The notes beneath the pieces were generated by a model. The model saw only the letters and a list, made by a program, of their open reading frames with translations. It ran no database searches and was not told where the DNA came from. From the NCBI GenBank assembly GCA_903900685.1, contig CAIUOC010000086.1, positions 1-52,835 of the forward strand: DNA of 52,835 bases, written 5' to 3'. The position numbers were made by a program, and so were the translations under genes. Shown here in pieces: positions 6,808-39,130 of this stretch; position 1 is the stretch's first letter, and each line of letters begins with the position of its first letter. The stretch comes from an uncultured Candidatus Saccharibacteria bacterium. Lineage in GTDB: Bacteria > Patescibacteriota > Saccharimonadia > Saccharimonadales > UBA4665.

Positions 6808-9061
<2,254 letters not shown>

Positions 9062-23533: not shown

Positions 23534-24013
23534 ATGAAGACAGAAGAAAACGTTACATATAGAGCATCGATTGGTGCATTAATAGTTGACTCAAGAAAGA
23601 GATTTTTATTGACTGAATTAACAGACGCAAAACCTAAAGAATGCGATTTTGTTAAAGGTGGAAGACGAATCGGAGAAACCGAGTTACAAACACTCCATCG
23701 TGAAATAGGAGAAGAACTTGGTAATGATTTTGAATATGAAGTTATTGAAAAAAGTAATTGGAATGTAATTTATGAATGGCCAAAAGAACTCCAAGATAAA
23801 TTAGGATATTACGGACAAGCAAGAACTAGTTATTGGGTAAGGTATAAAGCTGGAGATATAAAATTGGATTCAACTGAATTAAGAAAATCATACTGGGTTG
23901 ATGAGTATGATTTAGCAGGTTGTCTTTTGGGGTTATTTTCAGAGGGTTATATTAAATCACTCTCTCTTGAGTGGGAAATTATAAAAAATAATCATTCTGA
24001 GTTATTTAATTAG
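23534..24013 (+). CDS. NUDIX hydrolase
   Basis: Nudix box GGRRIGETELQTLHREIGEELG. Confidence 0.7.
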   Translation: MKTEENVTYRASIGALIVDSRKRFLLTELTDAKPKECDFVKGGRRIGETELQTLHREIGEELGNDFEYEVIEKSNWNVIYEWPKELQDKLGYYGQARTSYWVRYKAGDIKLDSTELRKSYWVDEYDLAGCLLGLFSEGYIKSLSLEWEIIKNNHSELFN

Positions 24014-25237
24014 TAGATATCTATATTTTCTTAATAGATAAAAAGAGCCAGTTATTATGAGTAATTCATCATCTGATTTTAATAGTTCGGCTAACGCAGA
24101 TAATGGATCGGCAATAAATGTAATTTTTATCTTATTTGTTGATTTATTTGAGTTATAGAACTTGTCTTTTAGCTGATTATTATCCAAGTCCAGCAACGTA
24201 GTAATTATTAAATTATTCGATAACTGAAGAATTGATAAAATAATTTCATTATTTTTGAGCAAATCATCTGAATCTAGAGTAAGAAGAACTCTCATAGATT
24301 TACCTGGATATATTTTCTCTATATCATGAACTAAAGTTCTAATTTTCTGAAGATTATGTGCCCCGTCTAATATAACTGTTTTTTTATTATCTTTAATTAC
24401 TTCAAATCTTCCAGGAATTATAATACTTGCAGCTTTTTCTAATTGTAATTTATTCAGTTCAGCCTTATTATTTTCAACTATAATATTGCTAACTAAAGAG
24501 TTTGCAAGTATAAAATTTCTTTTTTGGAAATCATTTAGCGGTAAAGCGTATTTTCTTTCTTTTGGATGATAGACTGAGGCATTATTTAATTTAGCCACTT
24601 TTTGGATTATGTTGTTTATCTCATTGCTCTGTTTATAGCAGAATACTTTACTATTCTTTGTAATAATACCAGCTTTTTGCTTAGTTATTTGAGCTATGGT
24701 ATTACCCAGTAATTTAGTATGGTCTAAACCAATATCTGTAATTACACAAATTTTATTTGGATTATCGACTACATTCGTTCCATCAAGCAATCCACCAATA
24801 CCTACTTCAATAACTGCATAATCTACATTTTGTTTATTGAAATACCAAAATGCCATGGCTATTAAAAATTCATAATATGTTATCTTTTCATCAAAAGTAT
24901 TTATAAGTTCAATAAATTCGTTGAAAGCTTTTATATAATCCGTTTCATTCAGCGGTGTAAGGTTTATCTGTAGTCTTTCATTAATCTCATCAATGTGTGG
25001 CGATATAGACATTCCAGTTGAGTATCCAGCTTGTTTAAGAAGTGAGGCTATATAGTAACTAGTTGATGTTTTGCCCGATGTTCCAGCAACGTGAATAATT
25101 TTGATTTTATTTTGAGGATTGCCCAGAAACTTCATCAAGTCTTTCATGCATTTCAGATTATATGGCTGGGTAGTTGTTGTATGTTTAAATCTTCTCAGGT
25201 ATTTATCTATATCTTTAAAGTTATTTATATCCTTCAT
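24002..25237 (-). CDS. folC: Folylpolyglutamate synthase/dihydrofolate synthase family (Mur ligase fold)
   Basis: P-loop HVAGTSGKTSTS, EVGIGGLLD, DGAHN motifs; 411 aa. Confidence 0.8.
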   Translation of the reverse strand: MKDINNFKDIDKYLRRFKHTTTTQPYNLKCMKDLMKFLGNPQNKIKIIHVAGTSGKTSTSYYIASLLKQAGYSTGMSISPHIDEINERLQINLTPLNETDYIKAFNEFIELINTFDEKITYYEFLIAMAFWYFNKQNVDYAVIEVGIGGLLDGTNVVDNPNKICVITDIGLDHTKLLGNTIAQITKQKAGIITKNSKVFCYKQSNEINNIIQKVAKLNNASVYHPKERKYALPLNDFQKRNFILANSLVSNIIVENNKAELNKLQLEKAASIIIPGRFEVIKDNKKTVILDGAHNLQKIRTLVHDIEKIYPGKSMRVLLTLDSDDLLKNNEIILSILQLSNNLIITTLLDLDNNQLKDKFYNSNKSTNKIKITFIADPLSALAELLKSDDELLIITGSFYLLRKYRYLLIK

Positions 25238-25342
25238 ATCTAGGATATTATCCTAATTTTATTAGAATGCGCAATATATATAATGGAAAATTTCATCTAA
25301 TCAATTCAATATGTAATAATTGGAATTAGGACATATTTAAAT

Positions 25343-26095
25343 ATGAATAATATTATACAGATAAAAACATTACCTAAAGTCCCATATATAGATAATGGAG
25401 ATAATATTGCTGATATAATTATTGCTTCTGCTGATATAGCCAAAATAACTTTTAAAGAAAATGACATATTGTGCGTGTCTTCAAAGGCAGTGTCCATTTC
25501 TGAAGGCAGAATAATGTCTTTAAATGATGTAGTTGTTAGTGATGTAGCAAATAAAATCCATAAAAAAATTCCTCGTAAAGATCCTAGAACAATTCAGGCA
25601 ATAATAGATGAGACCGGTTCTCCGGATGGAAGTCGAATAGATCTAGATATTAACTATATAGCAGGCTGGCTACCTAATGGGTTAAGGTTAACAAGTTCAG
25701 GTGTTGATAAGAAAAACTCAGACGAGGTAATATTACTGCCAAAAAATCCAGATAAAAGTGCCAGGGAGATTGGTGAAAAAATTCATTCTGTATTTGGAGT
25801 AAAGGTAGCAGTTATTATAACGGATAGTGATGGTCGTGTTGAGAAGCGTGGAGCTACGCAGCTTGCAATAGGATTATATGGAATACCGCCTATCAGGTAT
25901 GCTGAGTCAAAAGATGAAGAAGGAAAGATAAATAAATCCGAGGAAACAATTTCGGATATGTTAGCTGCTTCTGCAGGGCTTATTATGGGCCAAAGAGGAA
26001 CAAATAAACCAGTTGTTATAATCAGTGGATTTGAATTCGAATTTGATGATAAAAGTACAATTTTAGAATCACTTAGTAGGGCTAATCTTGTATAG
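25343..26095 (+). CDS. CofE-like (F420-0:gamma-glutamyl ligase family) protein
   Basis: DILCVSSKAVSISEGR and ITDSDGRVEKRGATQLAIG resemble the F420_ligase family core. Confidence 0.55.
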   Translation: MNNIIQIKTLPKVPYIDNGDNIADIIIASADIAKITFKENDILCVSSKAVSISEGRIMSLNDVVVSDVANKIHKKIPRKDPRTIQAIIDETGSPDGSRIDLDINYIAGWLPNGLRLTSSGVDKKNSDEVILLPKNPDKSAREIGEKIHSVFGVKVAVIITDSDGRVEKRGATQLAIGLYGIPPIRYAESKDEEGKINKSEETISDMLAASAGLIMGQRGTNKPVVIISGFEFEFDDKSTILESLSRANLV

Positions 26096-26618
26096 ATGTA
26101 ATATAGTCTAAAATCTCTTCAAAATTATCATAATTATGATGAATATTTCTTACTTCTTCCGTAGGGATAAACATACGTTCTGAAACTTCATGCATTGGAA
26201 CAAAGTCATTAACCTTAATAGCATCAGCAATATAAAGTAACTGATAGCCTTCATCGGGATATTTCTTATTAGATTCTAGGTTTTTTAATTTTTTTGTCTT
26301 CCAATAGCCAATTAGTTTAAGATTACTTATTTCAACATTTGCTTCTTCAATACATTCTCTCCTTAAGCATTCTTCTGGGGATTCATTTGCTTCTATATGA
26401 CCACCCGGTAGTCCCCAGCCACGTATTGGTTTAGTGAGTAGTAAATTACCGTTATTGAATACTGCGCCCATTACAGAAGTTATATTGTCTGTGTTATCGG
26501 GCAAAGATTGAGAAATATGAAATTGAACTTCTGTAGAATTATCCTCGCCCCAGTAATTGACATTAAACTTCATAAACTCCATAAACTCCATCGAACCATA
26601 ATAATTATATTTTTTCAT
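26082..26618 (-). CDS. NUDIX hydrolase
   Basis: Nudix box GGHIEANESPEECLRRECIEEANV. Confidence 0.75.
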   Translation of the reverse strand: MKKYNYYGSMEFMEFMKFNVNYWGEDNSTEVQFHISQSLPDNTDNITSVMGAVFNNGNLLLTKPIRGWGLPGGHIEANESPEECLRRECIEEANVEISNLKLIGYWKTKKLKNLESNKKYPDEGYQLLYIADAIKVNDFVPMHEVSERMFIPTEEVRNIHHNYDNFEEILDYITSIQD

Positions 26619-26630
26619 AGTACTGAGTTA

Positions 26631-26659
26631 TTGACAAATTTACAATGCTATTCTATAGT
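26631..26659 (+). promoter_or_regulatory. Sigma-70-type promoter (TTGACA-17 nt-TATAGT)
   Basis: TTGACA at 26631-26636, 17-nt spacer, TATAGT at 26654-26659. ATG at 26666 lies 6 nt downstream of the -10. Confidence 0.5.
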
Positions 26660-26665
26660 TTTAGC

Positions 26666-26737
26666 ATGAGTTCAATAATTATAAACTCAACATATTATGT
26701 CCGCATTTATCTGGCGGACTATTATTCTGTATCATAA
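26666..26737 (+). CDS. Candidate Tyr-rich leader peptide (23 aa, MSSIIINSTYYVRIYLADYYSVS)
   Basis: ATG at 26666 to TAA at 26735-26737. Five TAT codons among 23. No SD, which is leaderless geometry. Overlaps the hairpin GTCCGC/GCGGAC. Confidence 0.4.
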   Translation: MSSIIINSTYYVRIYLADYYSVS

Positions 26738-26760
26738 TAAATATAAATGAATCGAGACTT

Positions 26761-26783
26761 AACCGCCAAAAAGGCGGTTTTTT
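26761..26783 (+). terminator. Rho-independent terminator (AACCGCC-AAAAA-GGCGGTT + T-run)
   Basis: 7-bp GC-rich stem, 5-nt loop, then T-run to 26783. No upstream plus-strand gene it could serve. Lies 24 nt before the tyrA-like ATG region. Confidence 0.6.
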
Positions 26784-26807
26784 AATTTAACAAGTAAAGG
26801 AAAAGGA

Positions 26808-27539
26808 ATGAATAAAAATACTAAATTTGGAGTTATAGGGTTTGGAGAATTTGGGAAGTTAGTCGTACATAAGCTATTACCAACAGAATCTAAAATATTC
26901 GTAAATGATAAAAATAAATCACTGAATTTAAAAAGCAATATAAAGTTTGATGATCTTAGGACTGTTTGTTCTGCTAACGTAATAATACTAGCTGTACCAT
27001 TTGATGCCTATATCGATCTACTCCCTAAGATAGCTAAACTAATCAATAAAGATACGCTTGTTGTTGATGTTTGTTCTGTGAAAATTGAGCCTCATGAGCT
27101 ATTTAAGATAAATGGGTTATTTAATCGGAATAACATACTCATGACCCACCCTCTTTTTGGTCCACAGTCATCAGTCAATGGAGTGGCAGACATGGACATA
27201 GTCATAACCAAACAATCCGGTGAATTATCTAGACAACTTATCAATTTTTGGCAGAGTATTGGATTAAAAACTACTCATTTGTCTGCAGATAAACATGATT
27301 TTGAAATGGCAAGAGTGCACGCTTTAACTTCATTTGTTGGTCGGACACTGTTAAATATGGATATTAAGGACTCATCAGTACCAACTAATTATTTTATTCA
27401 ACTACTTTCACTTATTGATGTTGAGCAGCATCATAGCAAAAAGTTATTTGAAACCATACAAAGACATAATCCATATGCTAGAGATATTAGAAAAAAGTTT
27501 ATCGAAGCTGCAATTTCACTCGATAAATCTATTCAATAG
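26808..27539 (+). CDS. tyrA: Prephenate/arogenate dehydrogenase family protein
   Basis: FGVIGFGEFGK (NAD fold), DVCSVK, THPLFGP, HDFEMARVHALT, NPYA motifs of the PDH family. RBS AAAGGAAAAGGA. Confidence 0.7.
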   Translation: MNKNTKFGVIGFGEFGKLVVHKLLPTESKIFVNDKNKSLNLKSNIKFDDLRTVCSANVIILAVPFDAYIDLLPKIAKLINKDTLVVDVCSVKIEPHELFKINGLFNRNNILMTHPLFGPQSSVNGVADMDIVITKQSGELSRQLINFWQSIGLKTTHLSADKHDFEMARVHALTSFVGRTLLNMDIKDSSVPTNYFIQLLSLIDVEQHHSKKLFETIQRHNPYARDIRKKFIEAAISLDKSIQ

Positions 27540-27590
27540 CTTTAATGTTTATGACAGCTAAAAACTTGAGAACTGATATAATCTAATCAT

Positions 27591-28853
27591 ATGGACAAAA
27601 AATTAAATAAAAAAGGTAATCCCCTCCTAGCAGTTTTTTCTACTATTTTTATAGATATGCTTGGAGTTGGAATTCTTATTCCAGTCTTCCCTCTTCTTAT
27701 ATTACCGCATAGTCCATACCGAATAACTCCAACTGGATGGAGTGTAGCAGATGGTTTTATATTACTTGGCTGGCTTAGCGCTGTTTATCCCCTAGCTCAG
27801 TTCTTTGCGGCTCCAGTTCTTGGTCAACTATCTGATAGGTATGGTAGAAAGATTGTACTGACAGTATCAATTATTGGAACTTCCTTGTCCTATGCGCTAT
27901 TTGCTATAGGAGTAGCCACCAAAAATATTCCTTTGATGTTCATAAGCAGAATAGTCGATGGGCTAACAGGGGGCAATATTTCTGTTGCACAAGCTGTTAT
28001 TGCAGATATTAGTACTCCAAAAAATAGAGCAAAGAATTTTGGGTTAGTTGGAGCGGCTTTTGGTCTTGGGTTTATTTTTGGCCCATATGTTGGGGGTAAA
28101 CTCGCGGACCCTCATGTAGTAAGCTGGTTCAGTGCTTCAACTGCTTTTTGGTTTGCAGCAATTCTTTCGGCCATTAATGCGGTAGTTGTAATTAGGTTCC
28201 TGCCTGAAACTATTAAAAAAAGATCTGCCAAGTTTACCCTGCACATTTTAGAATCTTTCTCGAATGTGATTAAGGCATTTACTAACACTGGCATTAAAAA
28301 CATTACCCCATCTACATTTTTGTTTAATGCTGGTTTCACATTTTTTACCACATTCTTTGCAGTTTTTCTAGCTGTAAGGTTTGGATTTTCACAAGGCAAT
28401 ACTGGTGATTATTTTGCATATTTTGGAATTTGGATTGCCGTAGTTCAAGGCGGCCTAATAGGAATAGTCTCTAAGAAATTTAAGGATTACCAGGTGTTGA
28501 GGTATAGTTTTTTTGGTGCTGCAATAACATTCATGACATATTTATTAATACCCAATGGTCAGCATAGATGGTTATTCGTAATTCCTCCGGTACTGGCTTT
28601 ATTTACAGGTATGACCCAAGCATTTTTGCCATCTATTATAAGTAGAGTCACGCCTAAGGAAATTCAGGGCGAGACACTTGGAATTAATACTAGTGTCAGT
28701 GCTTTGGCACAAGCAATACCGGCAATCATAGCTGGGTACGTTGCAACCATTAATACATCGGCAACAGTCATTACAGCTAGTGCACTTATTGGATTAGCAG
28801 GATTAGTTTTTTGGGTTCTCTTCAAACCTAAGAAATTCAATACAAATATTTAA
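27591..28853 (+). CDS. MFS transporter (DHA1/tetracycline-efflux-like)
   Basis: 12 TM segments, motif A GQLSDRYGRK; 420 aa. Confidence 0.85.
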   Translation: MDKKLNKKGNPLLAVFSTIFIDMLGVGILIPVFPLLILPHSPYRITPTGWSVADGFILLGWLSAVYPLAQFFAAPVLGQLSDRYGRKIVLTVSIIGTSLSYALFAIGVATKNIPLMFISRIVDGLTGGNISVAQAVIADISTPKNRAKNFGLVGAAFGLGFIFGPYVGGKLADPHVVSWFSASTAFWFAAILSAINAVVVIRFLPETIKKRSAKFTLHILESFSNVIKAFTNTGIKNITPSTFLFNAGFTFFTTFFAVFLAVRFGFSQGNTGDYFAYFGIWIAVVQGGLIGIVSKKFKDYQVLRYSFFGAAITFMTYLLIPNGQHRWLFVIPPVLALFTGMTQAFLPSIISRVTPKEIQGETLGINTSVSALAQAIPAIIAGYVATINTSATVITASALIGLAGLVFWVLFKPKKFNTNI

Positions 28854-28953
28854 TAAATGCTATTTATTTGATTAGAGAAATTCTTCAACTTATCAAAGGG
28901 TTTGATTTTCAATTCAGTAGTTTTATCATCTTCATTCATCTTAGCTCTTGTAG

Positions 28954-29259
28954 TTATATAACGTTCTGGAAGATATTTAATTCACTAGAATCTTTCATAA
29001 GCAATAGGTCATTGGATGATATTTTATTCCGCGTAAAACCCGTTCCAGACTTATAGACTATTATTGCGTCAGTTCCCGGAATACAAGCAATGATACTAAA
29101 CCCTGTCGAAGTTATCTTAGACTGCAAATCAGTATTGCTCGCCGAAGTAACCGGTTGCTGAACAATATCAGTAACAGATCTTACTGGAGGAGATTTCGCT
29201 CCCGGGATAACAGCACCATTTTCAGCAATATCTTTTACTTTCGGTATATTGTTAGGCAT
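28954..29259 (-). CDS. Hypothetical protein (101 aa), weakly supported
   Basis: ORF preceded by a minus-strand extended -10 (TGGTATAAT, 29304-29296). No SD and no recognised motif. Confidence 0.3.
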   Translation of the reverse strand: MPNNIPKVKDIAENGAVIPGAKSPPVRSVTDIVQQPVTSASNTDLQSKITSTGFSIIACIPGTDAIIVYKSGTGFTRNKISSNDLLLMKDSSELNIFQNVI

Positions 29260-29383
29260 TTGTTCTGGAGTAAATTTATTGCTTTTCGAAGATGAATTAT
29301 ACCATAAGTTTTATATATCTTTTGCGATAACTCTATGATACAATTCATCTAATTGATATAAATAAAAAGAAAGTATTAAAAAA

Positions 29384-30301
29384 ATGAAATATTTTAAATT
29401 AAAAGAATTAGATAATAAAGGTTTTAGTCTGCATTATCTTCTGCCCTTGATAATCATAGCAATTATAGCTTCAATAGGTGCGAGAGTTATTTTTACGAGT
29501 CACGCACAGACACCTACGAAGATTCCTAAAATAATTTTGAGCTACGGTCCAGATCCTACTCAGACAGTTCAAATATATGCCCAGACACAACCAAATTCAC
29601 CAGTTGTCGTTATGGTCCATGGAGGAGGCTGGAAATCGGATGTCAACGCAAACATGGAAAACATTAGCGCTGAACAGCTTAGAAATAATGGTAACGTAGT
29701 TTTTGACGTTAATTATCCTTCAGACTCAGACACTATGCCAGCTTTTCCCAACGAGATAGACAGTGTAGTGAGTGCAACTAATTATGCTATTGCAAATGCT
29801 TCCATTTACAATGGAAACGCAACGAAATTAACTTTACTCGGCGGGTCGTCAGGCGCCCAGTTAGTAGCTATGGCCGCACTGCAACTTAACAGCCTTAATA
29901 AAGGTACAGTTTCTCAAGTAATAACCCTAAGCGGACCATTTGATTTTCCTTTATTAATAGCTAATTGGGCGGCTACAGATGGTCCCATCGGTGACTTGCA
30001 TATAAATAACGAAATGGACGCCTTGGGATGTTCGAAGCCGTCTACATGCCAAGTGAGTATTGAGGATAAATGGTCACCAGATAAGCAAGTCACACATGAT
30101 AATTGTCCTGCAAATTGGTTAATACTCAACGAGAGCAATGAGACAATGCCAGTAGAACAGGCAGATGTTATGACTCGAGCCTTAAAAGCTGTAAACTGTA
30201 ACGTAACTGAAACCATAACTTCTGGTACTAAGCATTCATTTGCTTACTTTCATCCATATGATAACGGTCCTATCATAGGGAATTTTTTAACCAGAAAATA
30301 G
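29384..30301 (+). CDS. Secreted/anchored alpha/beta hydrolase (esterase/lipase-like)
   Basis: N-terminal TM or signal sequence, VVMVHGGGW oxyanion-hole motif, GGSSGA (GxSxG). Confidence 0.65.
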   Translation: MKYFKLKELDNKGFSLHYLLPLIIIAIIASIGARVIFTSHAQTPTKIPKIILSYGPDPTQTVQIYAQTQPNSPVVVMVHGGGWKSDVNANMENISAEQLRNNGNVVFDVNYPSDSDTMPAFPNEIDSVVSATNYAIANASIYNGNATKLTLLGGSSGAQLVAMAALQLNSLNKGTVSQVITLSGPFDFPLLIANWAATDGPIGDLHINNEMDALGCSKPSTCQVSIEDKWSPDKQVTHDNCPANWLILNESNETMPVEQADVMTRALKAVNCNVTETITSGTKHSFAYFHPYDNGPIIGNFLTRK

Positions 30302-30800
30302 ATTATTTTAGAATATAATTAATAGCGCTTTTAGGATGAAAATAAGATTTCGAATTTTATGTTTATATAAGTTATAGTTTACGGTCTTCTAATATATAAG
30401 ATTATTATAAAAATATCCCATGATTAAGAGTACATAATGTTGGCTCTAAGCTTATTGCTCAAAAAAAACAAAGAATAGATTATAGATTATTTTATATATC
30501 TAAACTTCCATAGTTGGATATTTAAAAAAGTACAGTAATGTACTAATCATTGATGATGCACTTGTTCATGAGCTACACTTAACAAATTAACTAAACAAAT
30601 ACTACAAAAATGATTTGCAATAGCATACTACGGACTTGTTCTTGTAGCATCTCCATCAGTGAATTAGTATAGTTAATTGAATTTGGCTGAGCGTACTGGT
30701 CTAGAACATTATTACAGGGATGAACAATAATCAGACACTAATGCCTGGACTTGTTTCGATGAATATAGCCTAACTTCTTAAAATGAGACAAATGAGACAC

Positions 30801-31490: not shown

Positions 31491-32090
31491 ATGAAAATAC
31501 TTAGAGAAAAATTTTTTATGAAAACGTACGATGGAAATTCAGAAAATCAACCTCTCGGAGAAACACTCCCTCTAAACGATCTAACCTCGGGATTTGAAGT
31601 ATCACCAGTGATATTCGCGCTAGTCCATCTCAATAAACCTTTTGATGTGGCAATGATTGCTCAAACTGTAGCATCTACTTGTCATGTGCGAGTTGATTTA
31701 GTTGGACAGAGTATCGATTTCGATCATCCAAAAGTCGTTACAAAGCTAAAGTCGTGGGTCATATCTGATCCAGTTAAACTTTTGAGTGGAAAGAGCTCCC
31801 AATATGAGAGTATTGATGATTTGAAACAAAAAAATCGTGAATCACGTTTAATAGGAGCCGTTGTTACGGGCGGATCAAACCCATTCCAGTACGAATGGGA
31901 AGATAATGACATCATCGTCATTGGTGGTGCAAATGGTCTCTCAAGACAGGATGTAGAGCAAATGGACGACACTATTACTATACCTACAGTACCTGAAGTA
32001 GAATTCCTTACGGTTAGTACAGTTGTGTCTTCTCTTACATACCACATTCTTACACAAAGAGGGTTGTGGAATAAATTAGCTAGAGGGTAA
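31491..32090 (+). CDS. SpoU/TrmH-class RNA 2'-O-methyltransferase-like protein
   Basis: C-terminal IIVIGGANGLSRQDVEQMDDTITIPTVPEVEFLTVSTVVSSLTYHI matches SPOUT motifs 2-3. The start is ambiguous (ATG at 31491 or 31518). Confidence 0.6.
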   Translation: MKILREKFFMKTYDGNSENQPLGETLPLNDLTSGFEVSPVIFALVHLNKPFDVAMIAQTVASTCHVRVDLVGQSIDFDHPKVVTKLKSWVISDPVKLLSGKSSQYESIDDLKQKNRESRLIGAVVTGGSNPFQYEWEDNDIIVIGGANGLSRQDVEQMDDTITIPTVPEVEFLTVSTVVSSLTYHILTQRGLWNKLARG

Positions 32091-32132
32091 CGTTATGAAC
32101 ACGCACATAGATTTACTGAAAGGAAAAGTCAT

Positions 32133-32483
32133 CTATCTCGTTGTTAATGCCGCACCAGCATGACCGGCATCGTCTACCGAATATCCGGCTAATAATATAC
32201 TAGTACGGCCATTAGTCTGTTTTAATTGTACGGGTGTGAACACGCTAAGTAGCTGAAGCGGATTACTGTTGCCGGTGACTTTAGCTGTGTCGCGATATAG
32301 CTTCCAGCCGACCCAGCTTGCACTCACTATTCCAATTAATAAGACAGCACAAACGACACTCAGAGCTAGTCTTTTTAGACTAGGTCGTCTAAATCGAAGC
32401 TGGTGAGATATAAATGATTGCTCTCCATCACCGTAGTCCAGTGGCGGTACAGTCGCTTTACGATTTAAAATGATTCTAGACAC
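32133..32483 (-). pseudogene. LytR-CpsA-Psr (LCP) family gene, N-terminal fragment only
   Basis: Cytoplasmic tail plus TM, then NGRTSILLAGYSVDDAGHAGAALT, followed by a stop inside the conserved LCP entry motif. It is 116 aa, whereas the family is typically more than 300 aa. Confidence 0.5.
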
Positions 32484-32593
32484 TATTCACATCCTTAAAC
32501 TATTTACTAAAGTCCGCACCAGACAAGCTGCTAGCGAGACTTCCTAAAAGTTTATTGAATAGACCTTAAAATCTATTTAAAACGCCTGTTTAT

Positions 32594-33097
32594 CTAGTTG
32601 GAAGATGTAGGTGGAGCATTACCACCAGCGCTAGGGTTTACTAAAATACGAGATGCTTGGCTCGAGCTGGAACTATCGGCAATGACCGCAACGGTAGCGC
32701 CAACGCTTATGTCGCTTGTTGTGACTGTCTGGCTGTTGTCTGTAATCGTCGTAGCGCTCGTAATACTAAAGGTTTTACTAGAGCCACTTGACTGGTCATT
32801 AACGGTTATGCTGGACGCATCAACTGCCGTTACAGAGCCGAAGGTCGGTCGCTGTCCTCTGAATCCACCTCTGGGGCCACCGCCTGGACCTCCTTGACCA
32901 AAAGGGCTACCCTGACCACCAGCGCTAGCTGTAGCCTTTGGCTGATGTCCTTTTTGATATTGAATACCACCGTAGAAACTAAGTCCGCTAAAGATTAGTA
33001 CAGCGACAACAATTACTATAGGTTTTACAAAATTATTTTGTGATTGAACTTGATTGCGTGTCTTATGATGTTGCTCACCAGATGTATACTCTGTCAT
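32594..33097 (-). CDS. Membrane-anchored Gly-rich hypothetical protein, last gene of the ABC operon
   Basis: One TM, then GGQGSPFGQGGPGGGPRGGFRGQRP, then a Ser/Thr-rich beta-like region. Start lies 1 nt after the ATPase stop. Confidence 0.55.
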   Translation of the reverse strand: MTEYTSGEQHHKTRNQVQSQNNFVKPIVIVVAVLIFSGLSFYGGIQYQKGHQPKATASAGGQGSPFGQGGPGGGPRGGFRGQRPTFGSVTAVDASSITVNDQSSGSSKTFSITSATTITDNSQTVTTSDISVGATVAVIADSSSSSQASRILVNPSAGGNAPPTSSN

Positions 33098-33098
33098 A

Positions 33099-33770
33099 CT
33101 ATCTCTTTACCAGCTTTCCGTCACTCAGAATAAATGTCACATCCGTTTTGCCAGCAATGGACAAGTCGTGGGTCACTGTTAGTATAGTTGTATTCTCGGT
33201 CTTTGCTAGATCATGTAGCAAGTCAAATATCATTTTGCCCGTTTGACTATCAAGGTTACCTGTCGGTTCATCAGCCAGAATGAGCTGAGGTTTATTGGCA
33301 AGTGCGCGGGCAATTGCTACTCGCTGTTGTTCACCACCACTTAGACGCCCAGGCTTACGTTTCTGCTTATCGTCCTTTAACCCAACTTGATCAAGGAGTT
33401 TTCCAGCTCTCTCGATACGCTGCTTCTTGGGTACTTTAGCAAACTCCATAGGCAGCATAACGTTCTCTAAGGCGGTAAGGTTTGGTACCAAGTTATAGCT
33501 CTGGAAAACGTAACCGATTTTACGCCCACGATACTTTATAAGTGCCCGGTCATGCAGTTTAGTAATATCTTTATCGCCTACCATGATGTGCCCACTGGTT
33601 GGTTTATCTAGAGCGCCCAGCAAGCTGAGTAAAGTACTTTTACCACTTCCACTTTTGCCGATTATTGACGCGAATTGTCCGTCAGATACGCTGAAACTTA
33701 CATCATCCACGGCTAATACGTTTGTATCGCCTGACTTAAAAACTTTTTTTAATTCTTTAATCTGTAACAT
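33099..33770 (-). CDS. ABC transporter ATP-binding protein (MacB/LolD/FtsE-like)
   Basis: Walker A GKSGSGKST, signature LSGGEQQRVAIARAL, Walker B LILADEPT. Confidence 0.9.
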   Translation of the reverse strand: MLQIKELKKVFKSGDTNVLAVDDVSFSVSDGQFASIIGKSGSGKSTLLSLLGALDKPTSGHIMVGDKDITKLHDRALIKYRGRKIGYVFQSYNLVPNLTALENVMLPMEFAKVPKKQRIERAGKLLDQVGLKDDKQKRKPGRLSGGEQQRVAIARALANKPQLILADEPTGNLDSQTGKMIFDLLHDLAKTENTTILTVTHDLSIAGKTDVTFILSDGKLVKR

Positions 33771-33771
33771 A

Positions 33772-35112
33772 TTATTCTGCCCTCATTACTTCTGCTGGTC
33801 TTACTTTTGCTATGAAATACGATGCTAGGGTGCTACCTATAATTGCTATTACGAGGGCACCGACTAAGCCGTACAGGATTATGCTCCAGCCCACCGATCC
33901 ATGAACACTGGATAGACTATTGCCGATACCTCCAAATGCCCTTCTAAATCTGCCCGGGCCCGCTAATGTGGAGCTATTTGTGCTGTTGGTAACCAGTAAT
34001 TTGGTTATAGGGTTACCGGCCACCACGCCTATCCCAATTCCAATAACTGCCCCGAGTAAGGTAAGTGTAATCGCCTCAGTCATAAACTGAATCATGATCT
34101 TTATGTTCGACGCACCAATGGCTTTAATGACCCCGATTTCACGGCGGCGCTCACGGACAATCATAACCATAGTAAGTAGGATAATGACCGCACCAGCCAC
34201 TACCGCACCGAGTAAGCTGTACAGTGAAATAGTTTGAATGCTCTTAAGTGGCGCAATGGTTGTCTGAGCTTGTGCCGCTGCATTGGTAACATCCGCCGCT
34301 GAGCCAAGCGCATTTTTAACTGCTGTAGTAGCTGAGTCGACGTTAGTTATTGAATCTATGTTAGCGGTCGCACTGGTGATATCACCGGATTGGCTAGATA
34401 GCGTTTGCACAGTCTTAAGCGGCATAACTACTTGGTTATTGGAGAAGGTGTTACCAGCGTCAAAGATACCAACCACTGTGATATTAGTGCTATAGGCTGT
34501 AAAAGTAGATCCGACTTTTAAGTTATTCTTAGTAGCTAAACTGCTACCAATAACGGCTACATTGTCTGAGCTAGTGGACGAGAACACATTACCAGAAGTA
34601 AGTTTAAATGTGCCACCACCTAGAGTATCTGAAAGGTTTGTCGGATTAGTCGTACCATTTACCGTGACGGGTGGGGTAAAGGTCGTCGTACCGCCACTCT
34701 GACTTCTACCGAACGCATCTGGTGGTGGGGTGAAGCTTTGGCCACTGTTACCGGCAAATCGTTGACCGAGTGTGCCCGCATCGACTGCTGATACCAGATT
34801 ACTGTTGCTCGTTGTTAGCCTATCGCTTAGACTTTCATCAACTGAAGTGACATGAGCCAATTTTTGAACCTTGGCAATTTGTGTTTCTGTTAAAGGACTG
34901 CCCCCACCCGAAAAACCTCGGACGCCAGCAGGGCTAATTGATACTGTGTTGCCAACAGAACTTTCCACTGAACTTATTTTTTGGCCGACAGCTTGGTGGG
35001 CTACTAACATCGCTAGTGATAAACCTATAATTAGACCCAGTATAAGAACTATCGAAAAAGTTCGAATAGTATTTCGGAAAGCGTTCCGTATACCTCTAGT
35101 TACTACATTCAT
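33772..35112 (-). CDS. ABC transporter permease, FtsX/MacB-type
   Basis: N-terminal TM, about 250 aa of extracytoplasmic domain, and a C-terminal 3-TM FtsX-like module (IVRERRREIGVIKAIGAS). Confidence 0.8.
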   Translation of the reverse strand: MNVVTRGIRNAFRNTIRTFSIVLILGLIIGLSLAMLVAHQAVGQKISSVESSVGNTVSISPAGVRGFSGGGSPLTETQIAKVQKLAHVTSVDESLSDRLTTSNSNLVSAVDAGTLGQRFAGNSGQSFTPPPDAFGRSQSGGTTTFTPPVTVNGTTNPTNLSDTLGGGTFKLTSGNVFSSTSSDNVAVIGSSLATKNNLKVGSTFTAYSTNITVVGIFDAGNTFSNNQVVMPLKTVQTLSSQSGDITSATANIDSITNVDSATTAVKNALGSAADVTNAAAQAQTTIAPLKSIQTISLYSLLGAVVAGAVIILLTMVMIVRERRREIGVIKAIGASNIKIMIQFMTEAITLTLLGAVIGIGIGVVAGNPITKLLVTNSTNSSTLAGPGRFRRAFGGIGNSLSSVHGSVGWSIILYGLVGALVIAIIGSTLASYFIAKVRPAEVMRAE

Positions 35113-35155
35113 TAATATTCCTTTCCTTTAAGTATTGTTTTAGATGTTATCAGCT

Positions 35156-35177
35156 GAACTTTAAAGTTGGCTTAAAG
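35156..35177 (-). promoter_or_regulatory. Candidate response-regulator operator upstream of the ABC operon
   Basis: The minus-strand sequence CTTTAAGCCAACTTTAAAGTTC matches 36892-36913 at 20 of 22 positions. It has two CTTTAAG-like half-sites 11 bp apart and lies 43 nt upstream of the permease ATG. Confidence 0.45.
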
Positions 35178-35178
35178 C

Positions 35179-36198
35179 CTAAACAATCGGCAATTTGATG
35201 GTAAATACTGAGCCATGTCCAGGGTTACTGGTGACTAAAATTTCTCCATGCATCTGTCCAACTAGCTTGTCTGCAATAGAAAGGCCAAGCCCGTAGCCAT
35301 CACGTTGGTCTTTAGAACGTGATCGATCAACTCTATAGAAACGTTTAAAAATATACGGTAAGTCAGTTGCTCTAATCCCAATGCCCCGGTCACGAATATT
35401 TATATAAGCGAACTTTTCGTTTACTTCGCTTGCTAGAGTAACGGTAGCCTTGGGCTCGCTATACTTAATAGCATTATCTAGGAGAATTGCGATAACCTGT
35501 GCCAAACTTTGTTTATTGCCGAGTGCCTTGATGTTGGCTACCCCATCATTAACCGTGATGTCTTTAGCTTGAGCCAATAGAACAACTTGATTCATAGCCT
35601 CTGCCACTACCTCTTGAAGGGCAATTGGTGATAATTTAAGCGGTATATCTGTGTTACTGGCCAAGCGTAGTAGACCGTCACTAAGTTCTTGCAGCTTTAT
35701 AACATCTTCGGTGTTTTGTTTGATCACTTGTTTTGCATCTTGAAGATTCAACTTTGGCTTGCGCATGGCCACCTCATTTGTTGCTCTAATAGCAGTCAGT
35801 GGTGTTCGTAGCTCATGCGAAGCGTCACCAATAAATTGCGTCTGTGCTTCCATGGCTTCCTCTATTGGGCGTAACGTGCGGCGGGATAGATAGTAGCTTA
35901 CAGTTGCTCCAGCACCCAACGCTAGTATGTTAAGCCATACCAACCTCACCAGCAGGGCATGACGGCCCTCATCAATCCTTTGCTGCAAGAAACTTTGAAC
36001 ATCAGGCCCAAATTCATTAGGGCTAAATCCGCCACCTACTGATGATTGTGGTGGTATCTGCCTACCGAGTTGATGAAATGACGTATTATAAAAGACTATG
36101 CTAAAACCAATACTCATAAGCATAATGATTGCCAAGTATGTCATAGCCAGTCGGCCAGTGGCTGAGCGTAAAAAGCGAAATGTATTTTCTGTACTCAT
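35179..36198 (-). CDS. Sensor histidine kinase (HisKA + HATPase_c)
   Basis: 2 TM segments, H-box ASHELRTPLTAI, N-box LLDNAIKYS, G-boxes DRGIGI and GYGLGLSI. Has a 4-nt overlap with the regulator gene. Confidence 0.85.
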   Translation of the reverse strand: MSTENTFRFLRSATGRLAMTYLAIIMLMSIGFSIVFYNTSFHQLGRQIPPQSSVGGGFSPNEFGPDVQSFLQQRIDEGRHALLVRLVWLNILALGAGATVSYYLSRRTLRPIEEAMEAQTQFIGDASHELRTPLTAIRATNEVAMRKPKLNLQDAKQVIKQNTEDVIKLQELSDGLLRLASNTDIPLKLSPIALQEVVAEAMNQVVLLAQAKDITVNDGVANIKALGNKQSLAQVIAILLDNAIKYSEPKATVTLASEVNEKFAYINIRDRGIGIRATDLPYIFKRFYRVDRSRSKDQRDGYGLGLSIADKLVGQMHGEILVTSNPGHGSVFTIKLPIV

Positions 36199-36872
36199 GA
36201 GTTTTCACCAATCTTATAGCCAAAGCCTCGTACCGTCTGTATAAGTTCTGCGTCTTTGAATGGCTTATCAACTTTGGCACGGACATAGGCGACGAACACT
36301 TCGACGGTATTAGGCAAAATATTGGCATCAAAGTCCCAAACATGGGACATAATGTTGTTTTTGCTCAGTACCTGTCCTTTGTTCCGTAGCATATATTCAA
36401 GCAATGAATACTCCTTACTCGATAGCTTAATGGACTGTCCAGATCGTTTTACTTCGTGGGTGTTGGTGTTAAGTGTTAGTTCACCCACTTTAAGTATTTC
36501 GCCAATGGATTCATTGGGTCGACGCATCAAGGCACGTACACGCGCTAACAGTACTTCAAACGAGAATGGTTTTGGCAGATAATCATCGGCTCCTGCGTCT
36601 AGTCCATGGACGATATCGTGATTCTGGTCTTTTGCAGTTAACATAAGTATCGGTGTATGGTTACCCTCTGCCCGAAGTTTCCTGCATACCTCAATGCCAT
36701 CCATCCCGGGTAGCATTACATCCAAGATAATCAGATCGTACTCATCGGCACTGGCAGTATTATAGCCATCTTCACCGTCATGACAGACGTCTACAGCATA
36801 GCTCTCTTGCTCCAGCCCCTCCTTGAGGGCTTGGGCTATTCGATGTTCATCCTCAATTACTAGTAATCTCAT
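36195..36872 (-). CDS. OmpR/PhoB-family response regulator
   Basis: MRLLVIEDE..., DLIILDVMLPGMDG, LMLTAKD, and a winged-helix C-terminus (..VRGFGYKI). Confidence 0.9.
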   Translation of the reverse strand: MRLLVIEDEHRIAQALKEGLEQESYAVDVCHDGEDGYNTASADEYDLIILDVMLPGMDGIEVCRKLRAEGNHTPILMLTAKDQNHDIVHGLDAGADDYLPKPFSFEVLLARVRALMRRPNESIGEILKVGELTLNTNTHEVKRSGQSIKLSSKEYSLLEYMLRNKGQVLSKNNIMSHVWDFDANILPNTVEVFVAYVRAKVDKPFKDAELIQTVRGFGYKIGENS

Positions 36873-36878
36873 AACTAC

Positions 36879-36913
36879 ATTATAGAGTGTAGAACTTTAA
36901 AATTAGCTTAAAG
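36879..36913 (-). promoter_or_regulatory. Two-component operon promoter: operator copy plus TATAAT 6 nt from the ATG
   Basis: Minus strand reads CTTTAAGCTAATTTTAAAGTTC (36913-36892), 7 nt, TATAAT (36884-36879), 6 nt, ATG (36872). Confidence 0.45.
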
Positions 36914-37018
36914 AACTGGCTTCACACGGCTTTCATGGTGTTTGATTGATAATGGTGACAAAAGCCGAAAATGTACCTGACTGAAATGCTCAGTCGGAAA
37001 GTAATTAACAAACGCAAA

Positions 37019-37053
37019 AGCTCAAAATAAGCACATGGGTCTGATTTTGAGCT
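37019..37053. repeat. Perfect 10-bp inverted repeat AGCTCAAAAT-N15-ATTTTGAGCT
   Basis: Arms at 37019-37028 and 37044-37053 in the divergent intergenic region. No T-run follows on either strand. Confidence 0.6.
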
Positions 37054-37127
37054 GTCGCATCTGGCTGAGAATGCCGGTCAGGAACATTTTCATATTTATT
37101 CATACTTTATTGGCATATAATGAAATC

Positions 37128-37307
37128 ATGATCAAAAAATACCCATACTGGAATTATGTTGTAGGCGTATTTGTAGTTTGGGCAGTAGTACTACTAATAG
37201 CTTGGCAGTTTATTAGTACTAGCCGGTTCCACAAAGTACTTATTTTCAGCTGTGGTTGGCTGGTCGGACTCTTATTTGCTAGTCTAGCGCGCAAGTTTTT
37301 TAAATAG
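37128..37307 (+). CDS. Small membrane protein (59 aa, 2 TM)
   Basis: ATG at 37128 lies 6 nt after TATAAT (37116-37121). The track's longer version from 37035 starts inside the inverted repeat and is unlikely. Confidence 0.45.
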   Translation: MIKKYPYWNYVVGVFVVWAVVLLIAWQFISTSRFHKVLIFSCGWLVGLLFASLARKFFK

Positions 37308-37315
37308 TAACCAAA

Positions 37316-37483
37316 ATGAGTAAAAGCTCAATGATTGTAATTTATATCCTGGCTATGACATCTACCGTAGTGATTGTTGATGTACTTTTCTTTAGACAAC
37401 TATTTTGGGAACGTCTGGCAGCAAACGTTGGTATAGTTTTGGTCTACGTTGCCTTTTATTTCGCATTCATAAAGAATCGATAA
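37316..37483 (+). CDS. Small membrane protein (55 aa, 2 TM), not in the ORF track
   Basis: ATG at 37316 lies 8 nt after the previous stop. MSKSSMIVIYILAMTSTVVIVDVLFFRQLFWERLAANVGIVLVYVAFYFAFIKNR. Confidence 0.35.
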   Translation: MSKSSMIVIYILAMTSTVVIVDVLFFRQLFWERLAANVGIVLVYVAFYFAFIKNR

Positions 37484-37556
37484 ATTAGCCCTGTATTACC
37501 TAAAAATATGTAACCGAAACCCTTAGTGGCTCAGGTTAGAACTTTGATTGTCGAGT

Positions 37557-37850
37557 CTATCTGTGACGTCTAGACACCTTAAGCCCAGTCCATACTAGGA
37601 TTGATCCAACAAGAAGACCAATGGACAGAGTGAGTAATATAATCTTGATCACCGGAGAGATAAGAGTTATAGACCCTGCAGGGCAGTTGTAAACGGCTCC
37701 GGGAATAACATGGTATGGGTGAAAAATACTTTCATAATTCCAACCACTCCCGCATGGCGTGTTGGCATCTGATGAATAGCTTGAGACCGCTAGAATGATC
37801 AGTAATATGATCTCGCCAGAAAATATGTAACGCCATAGATGCTTTTTCAT
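37557..37850 (-). CDS. Small membrane protein (97 aa) with N- and C-terminal TM and a Cys-containing loop
   Basis: Clean ORF whose hydrophobic termini flank ...NTPCGSGWNYESIFHPYHVIPGAVYNCPAGS. Confidence 0.45.
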   Translation of the reverse strand: MKKHLWRYIFSGEIILLIILAVSSYSSDANTPCGSGWNYESIFHPYHVIPGAVYNCPAGSITLISPVIKIILLTLSIGLLVGSILVWTGLKVSRRHR

Positions 37851-37873
37851 GAACTAATCTTAGCATAAGTGCT

Positions 37874-37899
37874 TTGGCTGGGGATGAGGGATTCGAACC
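37874..37899 (-). repeat. 26-bp duplicate of the tRNA-Gln 3' end (att-like core copy)
   Basis: ttggctggggatgagggattcgaacc is identical to 39055-39080. The sequence diverges immediately beyond it. Confidence 0.85.
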
Positions 37900-37973
37900 A
37901 ACAATAATATACTACCATCGATTTTCGCGACTCGCTCTATATTAGCTTACAATTCACCCCCGTCAAAATGATT

Positions 37974-39014
37974 TTAATAGTTGAAAAATATCTTTTGTTG
38001 ACTACTAGATATACGTGCCTTATTCCCTGAGGGGACTATGATTTGTGGATCGGTGTGTCCAAAATCTAGATTCTGTATGACAGGAATGGTTTTAGAGTAT
38101 TCTCTAATTGTTTTTAATATTATTTGATTTTGTTCAGTGGTATAGTCAATTTTTTCTTGAAGAGTTTTTTGTTTGTCTGAGTTCCATGCTTTAGGGCGTC
38201 CAACAAAGACTGCATTAAATTTGTCCAGCCAGCCACGTTCACCAAAACCGTACAGTAAATACGCTAAGACCCAAGGATCTGGAATCTCTTCTGAAGTTTC
38301 TAAATACAAAACACAGTTTTCTAGTTCTTCATCTTTTGGTAAATATTTACCTACTGTAAATTGTGCAATGAGTGATTCAACGCATCCGCCCCAAAGCACG
38401 CCTTCGACATCTGTCTTGCCATCCCAGAACCAGCCTCTATTTGGCTCCATCATCCTTTTATTCTTCAGATTATCTTTATCTGCCCATTCTAGACCTTCAT
38501 CGTTATATTCTGTTGAACATATAACCTCGTATTCACCAATATCAAAAAGAGCGTGATTTATAGATTCAATAGTCTGGGGTATCATTCCTTGTTGAAAAGC
38601 AAACTGAGTCATGATAGCACCACCATAATACGATGGTATGCCAAGACTCCATAAATAGTTGTGAAGATGCGTGTTGTCGCTAAAACCAAAAAAAGGTTTA
38701 GGATTTTTAAGCAGTACTTTTGGATCGAGAAGTTTTATCAATTTAATTTGATCGAAACCCCCAATAGATGTGAAGACGGCTTTGTTATTTGGGTCTGAGA
38801 ATGCAGCCAAAATATCTTTAGCGCGGTCTTCGAGTGAAGAGTTCATTTGTCTTGTTGTATGGTATTCAATGGGTTTGAGGCCAAAATGCTCCCTTAGTCT
38901 ATCTATCCCTAATTCATAGACCCACGGGAATATACCCGGTAATCCAGCAGATGGAGATATAACGGCAACTTGATCGCCCTTCTTTAATTTTGGAAGTGTA
39001 ATAAACTGTTTCAT
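37974..39014 (-). CDS. Peptidase S66 family LD-carboxypeptidase (LdcA/MccF-like)
   Basis: GDQVAVISPS, SIGGFDQ, FGFSDNTHLH (Ser nucleophile), ETSEE, FGHTDP (His). Confidence 0.8.
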   Translation of the reverse strand: MKQFITLPKLKKGDQVAVISPSAGLPGIFPWVYELGIDRLREHFGLKPIEYHTTRQMNSSLEDRAKDILAAFSDPNNKAVFTSIGGFDQIKLIKLLDPKVLLKNPKPFFGFSDNTHLHNYLWSLGIPSYYGGAIMTQFAFQQGMIPQTIESINHALFDIGEYEVICSTEYNDEGLEWADKDNLKNKRMMEPNRGWFWDGKTDVEGVLWGGCVESLIAQFTVGKYLPKDEELENCVLYLETSEEIPDPWVLAYLLYGFGERGWLDKFNAVFVGRPKAWNSDKQKTLQEKIDYTTEQNQIILKTIREYSKTIPVIQNLDFGHTDPQIIVPSGNKARISSSQQKIFFNY

Positions 39015-39055: not shown

Positions 39056-39130
39056 TGGCTGGGGATGAGGGATTCGAACCCCCGAATGCCAGTACCAAAA
39101 ACTGGTGCCTTACCACTTGGCCAATCCCCA
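39056..39130 (-). tRNA. tRNA-Gln (anticodon UUG), CCA encoded
   Basis: The reverse complement UGGGGAUUGGCCAAGUGGUAAGGCACCAGUUUUUGGUACUGGCAUUCGGGGGUUCGAAUCCCUCAUCCCCAGCCA folds as a cloverleaf. It has a 7-bp acceptor stem, anticodon stem CCAGU/ACUGG with loop UUUUGGU, and T-loop UUCGAAU. It is very similar to E. coli tRNA-Gln. Confidence 0.9.

Follow-up and report, generated by a model that had tools for sequence, protein, structure and literature searches.

What controls the tyrA-like gene of an uncultured member of the Saccharibacteria, and does the short, tyrosine-rich open reading frame (ORF) in front of the gene take part in this control? The question is raised by contig CAIUOC010000086.1 of assembly GCA_903900685.1, a stretch of 52,835 nucleotides (nt) from an uncultured Candidatus Saccharibacteria bacterium, the whole of which is called the window here. 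A sequence-only reading of the window had proposed that a leader peptide with repeated Tyr codons controls tyrA by attenuation. Support for this proposal was obtained from conservation among related loci, from computed folds in which ribosome position decides the pairing of the leader RNA, and from the leaderless layout of the ORF. The element is very likely a leaderless, Tyr-tRNA-sensing transcription attenuator of the leader-peptide type that controls tyrA and probably also the adjoining gene of a major facilitator superfamily (MFS) transporter. A short upstream ORF, enrichment in the cognate codon, an intrinsic terminator and, by computation, a ribosome-dependent antiterminator, all of them features of leader-peptide attenuators, were found at the locus. 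Four other explanations, taken up with the evidence that bears on them, are together unlikely.

Layout of the tyrA leader

The promoter, the 23-codon mini-ORF, its five TAT codons and the pairing segments were all found where the sequence-only reading had placed them (Table 1). In a promoter scan of positions 24000-30500, TTGACA/TATAGT at 26631-26659 is the sole 11/12 match. The ATG of the mini-ORF at 26666 lies 6 nt past the -10 box, and transcription is predicted to start at its A. The Tyr codons are codons 10, 11, 15, 19 and 20 of MSSIIINSTYYVRIYLADYYSVS; the stop codon occupies 26735-26737, 70 nt from the ATG of tyrA. In the ORF listing the mini-ORF is included in a longer frame of 30 codons, the start codon of which, also ATG, lies within the promoter. 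A Shine-Dalgarno (SD) sequence was looked for before the mini-ORF ATG and none was found; tyrA has a strong one. An ATG 6-8 nt past the -10 box, free of an SD sequence, recurs in 19 leaders, which makes leaderless initiation, guessed at in the earlier reading, the only plausible route by which the mini-ORF would be translated.

Behind the mini-ORF, the inverted repeat AACCGCC-AAAAA-GGCGGTT, with seven pairs, five of them G-C, a loop of five nt and a T run that follows, is one of two terminator-like sites that a terminator scan found in 24000-30500. As the earlier reading had remarked, no plus-strand gene upstream can use this terminator, since the neighbouring Nudix gene lies on the minus strand. 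The distance from the T run to the ATG of tyrA is only 24 nt, the ribosome-binding site (RBS) included, too short for tyrA to have a promoter of its own there. The SD region of tyrA is not sequestered (mean unpaired probability 0.61 at 26795-26805 in the full-length fold), so that regulation would act on termination and not on translation initiation.

Conservation of the leader in related loci

Related loci compared with the window carry L-numbers as labels. At least 12 diverged lineages of Saccharibacteria, with TyrA identities of 35-93%, have the same architecture 5' of tyrA or of chorismate-mutase-tyrA operons. It consists of a sigma-70 promoter, an ATG 6-8 nt past the -10 box, an SD-free ORF of 17-25 codons with GGCGG inside it, a CCGCC-loop-GGCGG-T-run terminator, an RBS and the gene. 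The -35 hexamer TTGACA, or a near match, occupies the same position in L005, both copies of L006 (L006a/b), L032, L094, L101 and L106. In the close relatives (L001-L004 and L086; 88-93% protein identity) the intergenic region is about 95% identical, and four of the seven substitutions in the mini-ORF are synonymous. At distant loci, where TyrA identity falls to 35-49%, this layout stands in front of tyrA or of a chorismate mutase gene that tyrA follows. Their leader peptides, each ending at the stop codon, are MINL(N/H)VAQSYLVPYYLAD in L005 and L095, MVNLTTAQTYLVPYYSADYVTVS in both copies of L006, MQRVMATTYYLVPYYLAD in L032, MSNIRTAQTYLAPYYPAA in L101 and MSIHKHNNCYYLVPYYQAADIFVS in L106. The peptides of L013, L017, L028 and L037 look unrelated and still contain Y-R-Y, Y-L-Y, Y-Y or Y-W.

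The pattern of change within the mini-ORF is that of a coding sequence. In all lineages of the LVPYY subfamily the ATG stands 16 codons (17 in L106) before a reference GCG codon. The first eight codons differ freely among lineages while the frame and the spacing from the ATG to the Tyr codons are fixed. Tyr is invariant at alignment positions -7 and -2 (10/10 lineages) and frequent at four more, with TAT and TAC interchanged; further synonymous changes affect Leu (CTA/CTG/CTT), Pro (CCC/CCA/CCG), Val (GTA/GTG) and Ser (TCA/TCT). GGCGG of segment 2 is invariant in the alignable leaders. In a pool of ten distinct tyrA leaders, Tyr accounts for 31 of 214 residues, against a background of 3.7% (p = 1e-10); for the mini-ORF of the window (5/23 codons), the same comparison, with the background taken from the long ORFs of the window, gives p = 0.0013. 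These alignments support translation of the mini-ORF, with the Tyr codons as the selected feature. Long peptides (23-24 codons) and short ones (18 codons; L005, L032 and L101) differ by one base after the Asp codon, TAT versus TAA or TAG. The tail of the long form, ending in V-S-stop, is conserved with synonymous changes in three lineages.

The coding signature bears on the possibility that the leader is a non-coding structured RNA, such as a riboswitch, a T-box-like element or a protein-binding attenuator, and that the ORF is incidental. In favour of it, every element of these kinds has a terminator/antiterminator pair, and the minimum free energy (MFE) fold of 26660-26790 is stabler than shuffles (z = -2.96; equally good shuffles 1/200). 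Arguing against this possibility are the position of the ATG, which in every lineage falls on the predicted +1, the conserved frame and length, and the synonymous character of the changes. A conserved aptamer was not found in the compared leaders; the 31-42 nt that separate segment 2 from segment 3 show no sequence conservation. Rfam searches, at gathering thresholds over the window and with permissive settings over 26550-26850, yielded no family matching the leader. The best permissive match was gltS, with 25.5 bits against a threshold of 47.5, and Trp_leader RF00513 (16.2 versus 41 bits) and Phe_leader RF01859 (15.3 versus 55 bits) also stayed below threshold. T-box RF00230 gave no match in 26550-26850 even at E <= 10 with permissive filters. 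T-boxes, riboswitches and the known leader families were thus ruled out for this leader by the Rfam searches, and a non-coding element is very improbable.

Recovery of leaders beyond the alignment was examined with a covariance model, R1, built from nine leaders, the window among them; the window itself, as a member of the training set, scores 122.9 bits. R1 recovered two leaders from outside the training set, L044 (53.1 bits, E = 6e-7, encoding MLIFTANTTYYARYYNRGAYL and a stop codon) and L058 (41.9 bits, E = 9e-5). Both are Tyr-rich small ORFs that precede chorismate mutase and tyrA. A pattern scan of metagenomes gave 13 loci, five of which are genuine leaders (L086, L090, L094, L095 and L096). 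The other eight are likely chance matches, for example a coding sequence with the C-terminus SADY followed by a terminator. L092 (about 1450-1533, plus strand) was not counted as a leader, an in-frame TAG lying just upstream and an ATG being absent. It contains a GTCCGC...GGCGGAC hairpin, then TAT TTT TAT TAT and a CCGCC/GGCGG terminator at which the contig ends, and could be a relative of the leader that has decayed or that starts in another way. A second copy of the scaffold was looked for in the window and not found.

The pairing segments are preserved along with the ORF. Over nine lineages, 80% of the alignment cells are paired in helix 1:2, 94% in helix 2:3, in which L006 has one compensatory change from U-A to C-G, and 95% in the terminator helix 3:4. 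In leaders too diverged to be aligned (L013, L017, L028, L101 and L044), segments 2, 3 and 4 vary together, as seen in the pairs GGCGGCC/GGCCGCC (L101), GGUGGCU/AGCCGCC (L017), GGCGGGU/ACCCGCU (L013) and GUGGCG/CGCCAC (L044) and in a 12-bp pairing in L028. Judged from these sequences, the joint change of the three segments is a better argument for the alternative pairings than are covariation counts. The expectation that mini-ORF and segments recur or covary in relatives was borne out in its first part: relatives with TyrA identities between 93% and about 35% repeat the mini-ORF, its Tyr codons and the segments. Covariation did not rise above that of shuffles.

Ribosome position and the proposed switch

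Both the MFE and the centroid fold of 26660-26790 hold hairpin 1:2 and the terminator. The effect of a ribosome was modelled by setting the nucleotides that it covers, the A-site codon and 12 nt, as unpairable. In the nascent RNA of the window, before the 3' arm of the terminator is made, hairpin 1:2 forms when no ribosome is present, and the 5' arm of the terminator is free; it is also free when the ribosome stands at the stop codon. With the ribosome stalled at Tyr codon 10 or 11, UGGCGG (26712-26717) pairs with CCGCCA (26763-26768). This structure has an energy of -11.0 kcal/mol, with 7/7 nt of the arm paired, compared with -11.3 kcal/mol for the terminator hairpin. Nine leaders were folded in this way, and in each a stall at the first regulatory codon pairs the 5' arm of the terminator upstream and a ribosome at the stop codon frees it. 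When the intervening sequence was shuffled, sequestration of the arm was reproduced in 0/300 cases for the window and in 0-13/300 per leader among the nine. The pairing of segments 2 and 3, which the sequence-only reading would have given up had it proved energetically negligible, is thus predicted to be substantial.

The events that we infer would follow a simple order, from the start of transcription and leaderless translation through stalling and the tyrosine response to transcription of the MFS gene together with tyrA. Transcription from TTGACA/TATAGT would start at 26666, and the mini-ORF would be translated as a leaderless message. If Tyr-tRNA is plentiful, the ribosome would reach the stop codon at 26735, segment 2 would be covered or captured again by segment 1, segment 3 would be free for segment 4, and RNA polymerase would terminate at the T run 26778-26783. 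If Tyr-tRNA is scarce, the ribosome would stall when Tyr codon 10 or 11 occupies its A site and would cover segment 1. UGGCGG would then be free to pair with CCGCCA as soon as the latter is made, the terminator would be blocked and the polymerase would enter tyrA and the MFS gene. Without translation, 1:2 and 3:4 would form and termination would result.

Several results weigh against this reading. With shuffles and random small ORFs as the measure of chance, in a window with a G+C content of 33%, promoter-like sites in 24000-30500 number 33 where 32.5 are expected, and terminator-like sites two where 3.3 are expected. Among 572 random small ORFs, six contain at least five Tyr codons and three contain two YY doublets. 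Each element of the window, taken singly, is compatible with chance, and the case therefore rests on the comparison with related genomes. There the leader is present at only about one-third of the surveyed Saccharibacteria tyrA loci; the remainder have short, plain upstream regions or lie inside operons. Formal covariation amounts to one compensatory pair per helix set, which shuffles equal in 53/500 and 181/500 cases; it is weak because the GGCGG/CCGCC core never varies in the nine-lineage alignment. In the full-length stalled RNA at equilibrium, the terminator is preferred in the window (-14.9 kcal/mol, versus -11.0 kcal/mol for the antiterminator) and in L001, L005 and L032, so that the switch must be kinetic. 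Attenuation of the E. coli trp operon is likewise kinetic. In the masking model only the first Tyr cluster, codons 10-11, yields read-through. A stall at Tyr codon 15 or at codons 19-20 would favour termination, which leaves the conservation of these codons unaccounted for; codon 15, invariant as it is, has no explained role because a ribosome stalled there masks segment 2. Regulatory codons extend up to the stop codon in pheL and hisL as well. Finally, the TyrA-like protein scores 84.9 bits against the NCBIfam prephenate dehydrogenase equivalog, far from the cut-off of 310. Since the NCBIfam equivalog cut-offs are not reached, the gene is named at the level of the TyrA family and not by its exact substrate.

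The invariant Tyr beside segment 2, which starvation for tyrosine does not explain, would be accounted for by a mechanism like that of TnaC, in which free tyrosine or another small molecule would make the nascent Y-L-V-P-Y-Y-L-A-D(stop) peptide arrest the ribosome, an arrest that would select terminator or antiterminator. Conservation of the motif extends beyond Tyr to V-P/V-R and A-D, and in four lineages the stop codon comes right after Asp. L-A-D-stop is also present in an Asn-type leader, L094, described below, although GAC is not needed there for 1:2 pairing. However, the V-x and A-D codons coincide exactly with segments 1 and 2, and RNA pairing thus accounts for their conservation. L013, L017, L028, L044 and L058 lack the motif and yet keep the Tyr codons and the architecture, and replacement of Tyr by Asn or Trp/Phe follows the cargo, as sensing of tRNA predicts. 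A biosynthetic gene, moreover, would be expected to be induced by shortage and not by its product. Peptide-dependent arrest of this kind is improbable, and sensing of Tyr-tRNA by codons 10-11 remains the preferred explanation.

Leaders with other codons and other cargo

Leaders of the same leaderless layout with different codons stand before other genes. Of two such leaders in L052, one encodes MAQSMQSNWFYFTG, with WFYF, and precedes genes for class II 3-deoxy-D-arabino-heptulosonate 7-phosphate (DAHP) synthase, tyrA, chorismate mutase-prephenate dehydratase and aminotransferase IV. The other, with QAWWTG, stands before a small ORF of 75 residues and a GNAT-like gene; a connection with tryptophan is not evident. 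The leaders of L094 and L090 encode MKLQSLNNNNNNLPLAD and a stop codon, with six Asn codons; their TTGGCGGACTAG is identical to that of L032. Their scaffold comprises TTGACA and TATAAT at a spacing of 17 nt, an ATG 8 nt on, TTGGCGGACTAG and CCGCC-CAGAA-GGCGG with a T run. The match between codons and cargo in the sister leaders is hard to explain unless the codons are sensed. L094 may be a leader-peptide attenuator that controls a tRNA gene, in this case that of tRNA-Asn; the stretch from the terminator to the tRNA contains a weak -10-like TATATT, however, with which tRNA-Asn could have a promoter of its own. Self-control of tRNA-Asn would, by way of speculation, fit the synthesis of Asn on the tRNA by transamidation.

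The Tyr leader itself occurs twice in L006, on one Saccharibacteria contig. The copies are identical from the ATG to the terminator and differ in their promoter spacers and in the genes downstream: one precedes chorismate mutase and tyrA, the other a 22-residue ORF (MNEHQPDW...) and a gene cut by the end of the contig. This ORF resembles the N-terminus of the HAD-CM gene of L095.

Because it is duplicated in L006 and stands before an unrelated gene for a 152-residue protein in L090, the unit looks portable. This would suit an independent gene for a small protein or a small RNA, complete with promoter, ORF and terminator, from which tyrA would be expressed by constitutive leak-through, the Tyr codons having no sensing function. 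In Sinorhizobium, liberated attenuator RNAs and leader peptides are described as acting in trans. Against an independent gene, the N-terminal half of the peptide is unconstrained, and what is conserved falls on the Tyr codons and on the segments that pair. In every case the unit lies 20-60 nt before a gene with an SD sequence, a gene of the tyrosine or aromatic pathway in at least 12 lineages, and its antiterminator complementarity, which exceeds that of shuffles, would be needless in a plain small gene. An independent gene is therefore quite improbable, and an attenuator that serves the gene behind it is favoured.

It is possible, though we would not call it probable, that the window leader and the sister leaders form a modular, phylum-wide family of leaderless attenuators in Saccharibacteria in which codons are exchanged and the unit is duplicated or moved to new cargo, a tRNA gene included. 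The scaffold of the family may consist of the promoter, an ATG at +1, about nine spacer codons, the regulatory codons, GGCGG (often within L-A-D-stop) and the CCGCC/GGCGG terminator. The regulatory codons, be they Tyr, Trp-Trp, Trp/Phe/Tyr or six Asn, may sense different aminoacyl-tRNAs.

Genes under the proposed control

Relatives of the TyrA-like protein are found mostly in metagenome-assembled genomes of Saccharibacteria, and many are fused or adjacent to chorismate mutase. The sequence-only reading had suggested that the MFS gene may belong to the controlled unit. A terminator scan detected no terminator-like site between tyrA and the MFS gene, and the tyrA-MFS pair is retained in L001-L004; the gene is probably co-transcribed with tyrA, a step for which the terminator-free gap of 51 nt and the retained pair are the indications. 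An MFS gene behind tyrA occurs only in the lineage of the window; in every other lineage the leader is followed by tyrA or chorismate mutase, and an MFS gene is absent.

The transporter could suggest that the leader peptide responds to a drug and governs an efflux pump, in the manner of the erm, cat and tet(L) leaders. In NCBIfam the MFS protein does match best to efflux pumps of the Tet(A)/(B)/(C) family, but the 185.9 bits are far under the family cut-off of 475. Since conservation behind the leader does not extend to the MFS gene, the idea of drug sensing was rejected, and we consider it extremely improbable.

In four further TyrA relatives (L098, L100, L102 and L104) the leader was not found. 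Each has, 2-9 nt before the ATG of the tyrA homologue (gene at 2501), a -10-like box and lacks a clear SD sequence. To judge from these upstream regions, leaderless messages may be widespread in the group.

Relation to known attenuators

The leader resembles the classical trpL, pheL (pheA), hisL, leuL, thrL and ilvL in its short ORF rich in codons for the end product. With the attenuators of Proteobacteria it shares the 1:2, 2:3 and 3:4 pairings, an intrinsic terminator and a decision made by the position of the ribosome; the terminator is favoured thermodynamically, control is kinetic, and regulatory codons lie near the stop codon as in pheL and hisL. It differs from them in sensing Tyr, in its tyrA cargo, in its leaderless, SD-free ORF and in its Saccharibacteria-like host, and it has no similarity in sequence or structure to Trp_leader or Phe_leader.

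Tyr T-boxes precede tyrS and genes of the aromatic pathway in Firmicutes. In T-boxes a structured RNA of about 200-300 nt makes direct contact with uncharged tRNA, and translation is not needed. Like them, the leader of the window would take the charging of tRNA-Tyr as its signal and would set terminator against antiterminator before tyrosine-related genes. Unlike them, it is only about 118 nt long, contains an ORF predicted to be translated and has no T-box match.

The only Tyr-containing precedent found is aroR of Corynebacterium glutamicum (Neshat et al. 2014), a Phe-Tyr-Phe leader that attenuates aroF, the gene for DAHP synthase, and that is reportedly unresponsive to tyrosine (PMC11802643). 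On this description, the WFYF leader of L052 and the FYGYFFF leader of L014, both before DAHP synthase, are functional analogues of aroR. The leader of the window, in contrast, repeats only Tyr, precedes tyrA and not DAHP synthase, and belongs to another phylum; kinship in sequence is not to be expected. Fourteen leaderless leader peptides have been predicted in Deinococcus deserti, as stated in the main text of PMC4007540, and leaderless polycysteine small ORFs of mycobacteria have been demonstrated which, according to the abstract, act on translation by unmasking an RBS (Canestrari et al., bioRxiv 10.1101/834739). As far as these sources go, the window leader shares with both a sensing mini-ORF at the 5' end of the transcript, free of an SD sequence, and the occurrence of several loci of the same design in one genome, here L006 and L052. 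It differs from the mycobacterial ORFs in that the RBS of tyrA is unsequestered and the switch is an intrinsic terminator, and the amino acids differ, being Cys in mycobacteria, various in Deinococcus and Tyr here. A Tyr-tyrA case is described neither in the main text of PMC4007540 nor in the abstract of bioRxiv 10.1101/834739.

Given leaderless leader peptides and an F-Y-F leader in Actinobacteria and Deinococcus, the class of mechanism is not new. New, most likely, is the combination of Tyr specificity, the bacterial phylum and the leaderless design in one attenuator. The sequence-only reading had been unaware of a Tyr leader for tyrA or of attenuators in the Candidate Phyla Radiation (CPR), and in the openly searchable literature, subscription-only papers apart, no paper was found on a Tyr-specific leader, on a tyrA attenuator or on leader-peptide attenuation in Saccharibacteria/Patescibacteria.

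To our knowledge almost nothing is known of gene regulation in Saccharibacteria and the CPR, few of which can be cultivated. If the reading is correct, tyrosine would join the amino acids sensed by leader-peptide attenuation, and the element would be the first of its kind described in Saccharibacteria/CPR. It would also imply coupled transcription and translation and leaderless initiation in these bacteria. Some bacteria with reduced genomes would then monitor the charging of tRNA-Tyr and induce the chorismate-mutase/TyrA step, here together with a transporter. This would point to a regulated route of tyrosine synthesis or salvage, relevant to host dependence. The conserved scaffold offers a search model for Tyr, aromatic, Trp and Asn regulons in metagenome-assembled genomes, where small ORFs always go uncalled. 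If L094 is read correctly, a leader-peptide attenuator would control its own cognate tRNA, tRNA-Asn.

Features of the window and of the sister leaders

Table 1. Coordinates of the leader, its neighbouring genes and the leaders of related loci
Locus	Feature	Position	Strand	Basis or remark
Window	-35 hexamer TTGACA	26631-26636	+	read from sequence; promoter scan
Window	-10 hexamer TATAGT, 17-nt spacer after -35	26654-26659	+	11/12 match in promoter scan
Window	Putative leaderless leader-peptide ORF MSSIIINSTYYVRIYLADYYSVS and stop	26666-26737	+	conserved frame, length and Tyr positions
Window	Tyr codons 10-11 (TAT TAT), proposed sensing site	26693-26698	+	codon 10 is invariant alignment position -7
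Window	Segment 1, GTCCGC, pairs with segment 2	26699-26704	+	6-bp hairpin in MFE and centroid folds
Window	Tyr codon 15, loop of hairpin 1:2	26708-26710	+	invariant alignment position -2
Window	Segment 2, UGGCGGAC	26712-26719	+	26714-26719 pairs with segment 1; 26712-26717 pairs with segment 3 (antiterminator)
Window	Tyr codons 19-20, tail of long-form peptide	26720-26725	+	mini-ORF codon alignment
Window	Segment 3, AACCGCC (26761-26767) and A26768	26761-26768	+	terminator 5' arm; 26763-26768 alternatively pairs with segment 2
Window	Segment 4, GGCGGTT (26773-26779) and T run to 26783	26773-26783	+	terminator 3' arm, predicted attenuated 3' end
Window	SD region AAAGGAAAAGGA of regulated gene	26796-26807	+	read from sequence
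Window	Regulated gene 1, TyrA family (prephenate/arogenate dehydrogenase-like), 243 residues	26808-27539	+	Pfam PDH_N 50.2 bits, cut-off 26.5
Window	Probable regulated gene 2, MFS transporter, 420 residues	27591-28853	+	MFS_1 174 bits; 51 nt 3' of tyrA
Window	Nudix gene, upstream neighbour	26082-26618	-	profile match
L006	Two Tyr-leader copies	2224-2344; 265-385	+; -	identical from ATG to terminator
L052	Two leaders	2656-2784; about 6723-6860	+	leaderless layout
L014	Leader with GFYGYFFF	5879-5990	+	precedes class I DAHP synthase and tyrosyl-tRNA synthetase
L094	Asn-type leader	182-287	-	about 20 nt upstream of tRNA-Asn(GTT) at 95-168 (-)
L090	Copy of Asn-type scaffold	1-84	+	before 152-residue protein without Pfam match

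The 5' end of the Nudix gene contains a 9-nt tandem repeat, CATAAACTC, at 26573-26590, which encodes MEF/MEF/MKF at the N-terminus of the protein. Its copy number varies in close relatives; L001 and L002 have more copies. Elsewhere in the window the G+C content is 0.41-0.45 at 32000-38000, compared with about 0.31-0.35 across most of the stretch. An ordinary tRNA-Gln(TTG) gene lies at 39056-39130 on the minus strand, and an equally ordinary Rfam L10_leader match (70 bits, threshold 44) lies at 52707-52826 on the same strand, upstream of rplJ-rplL.

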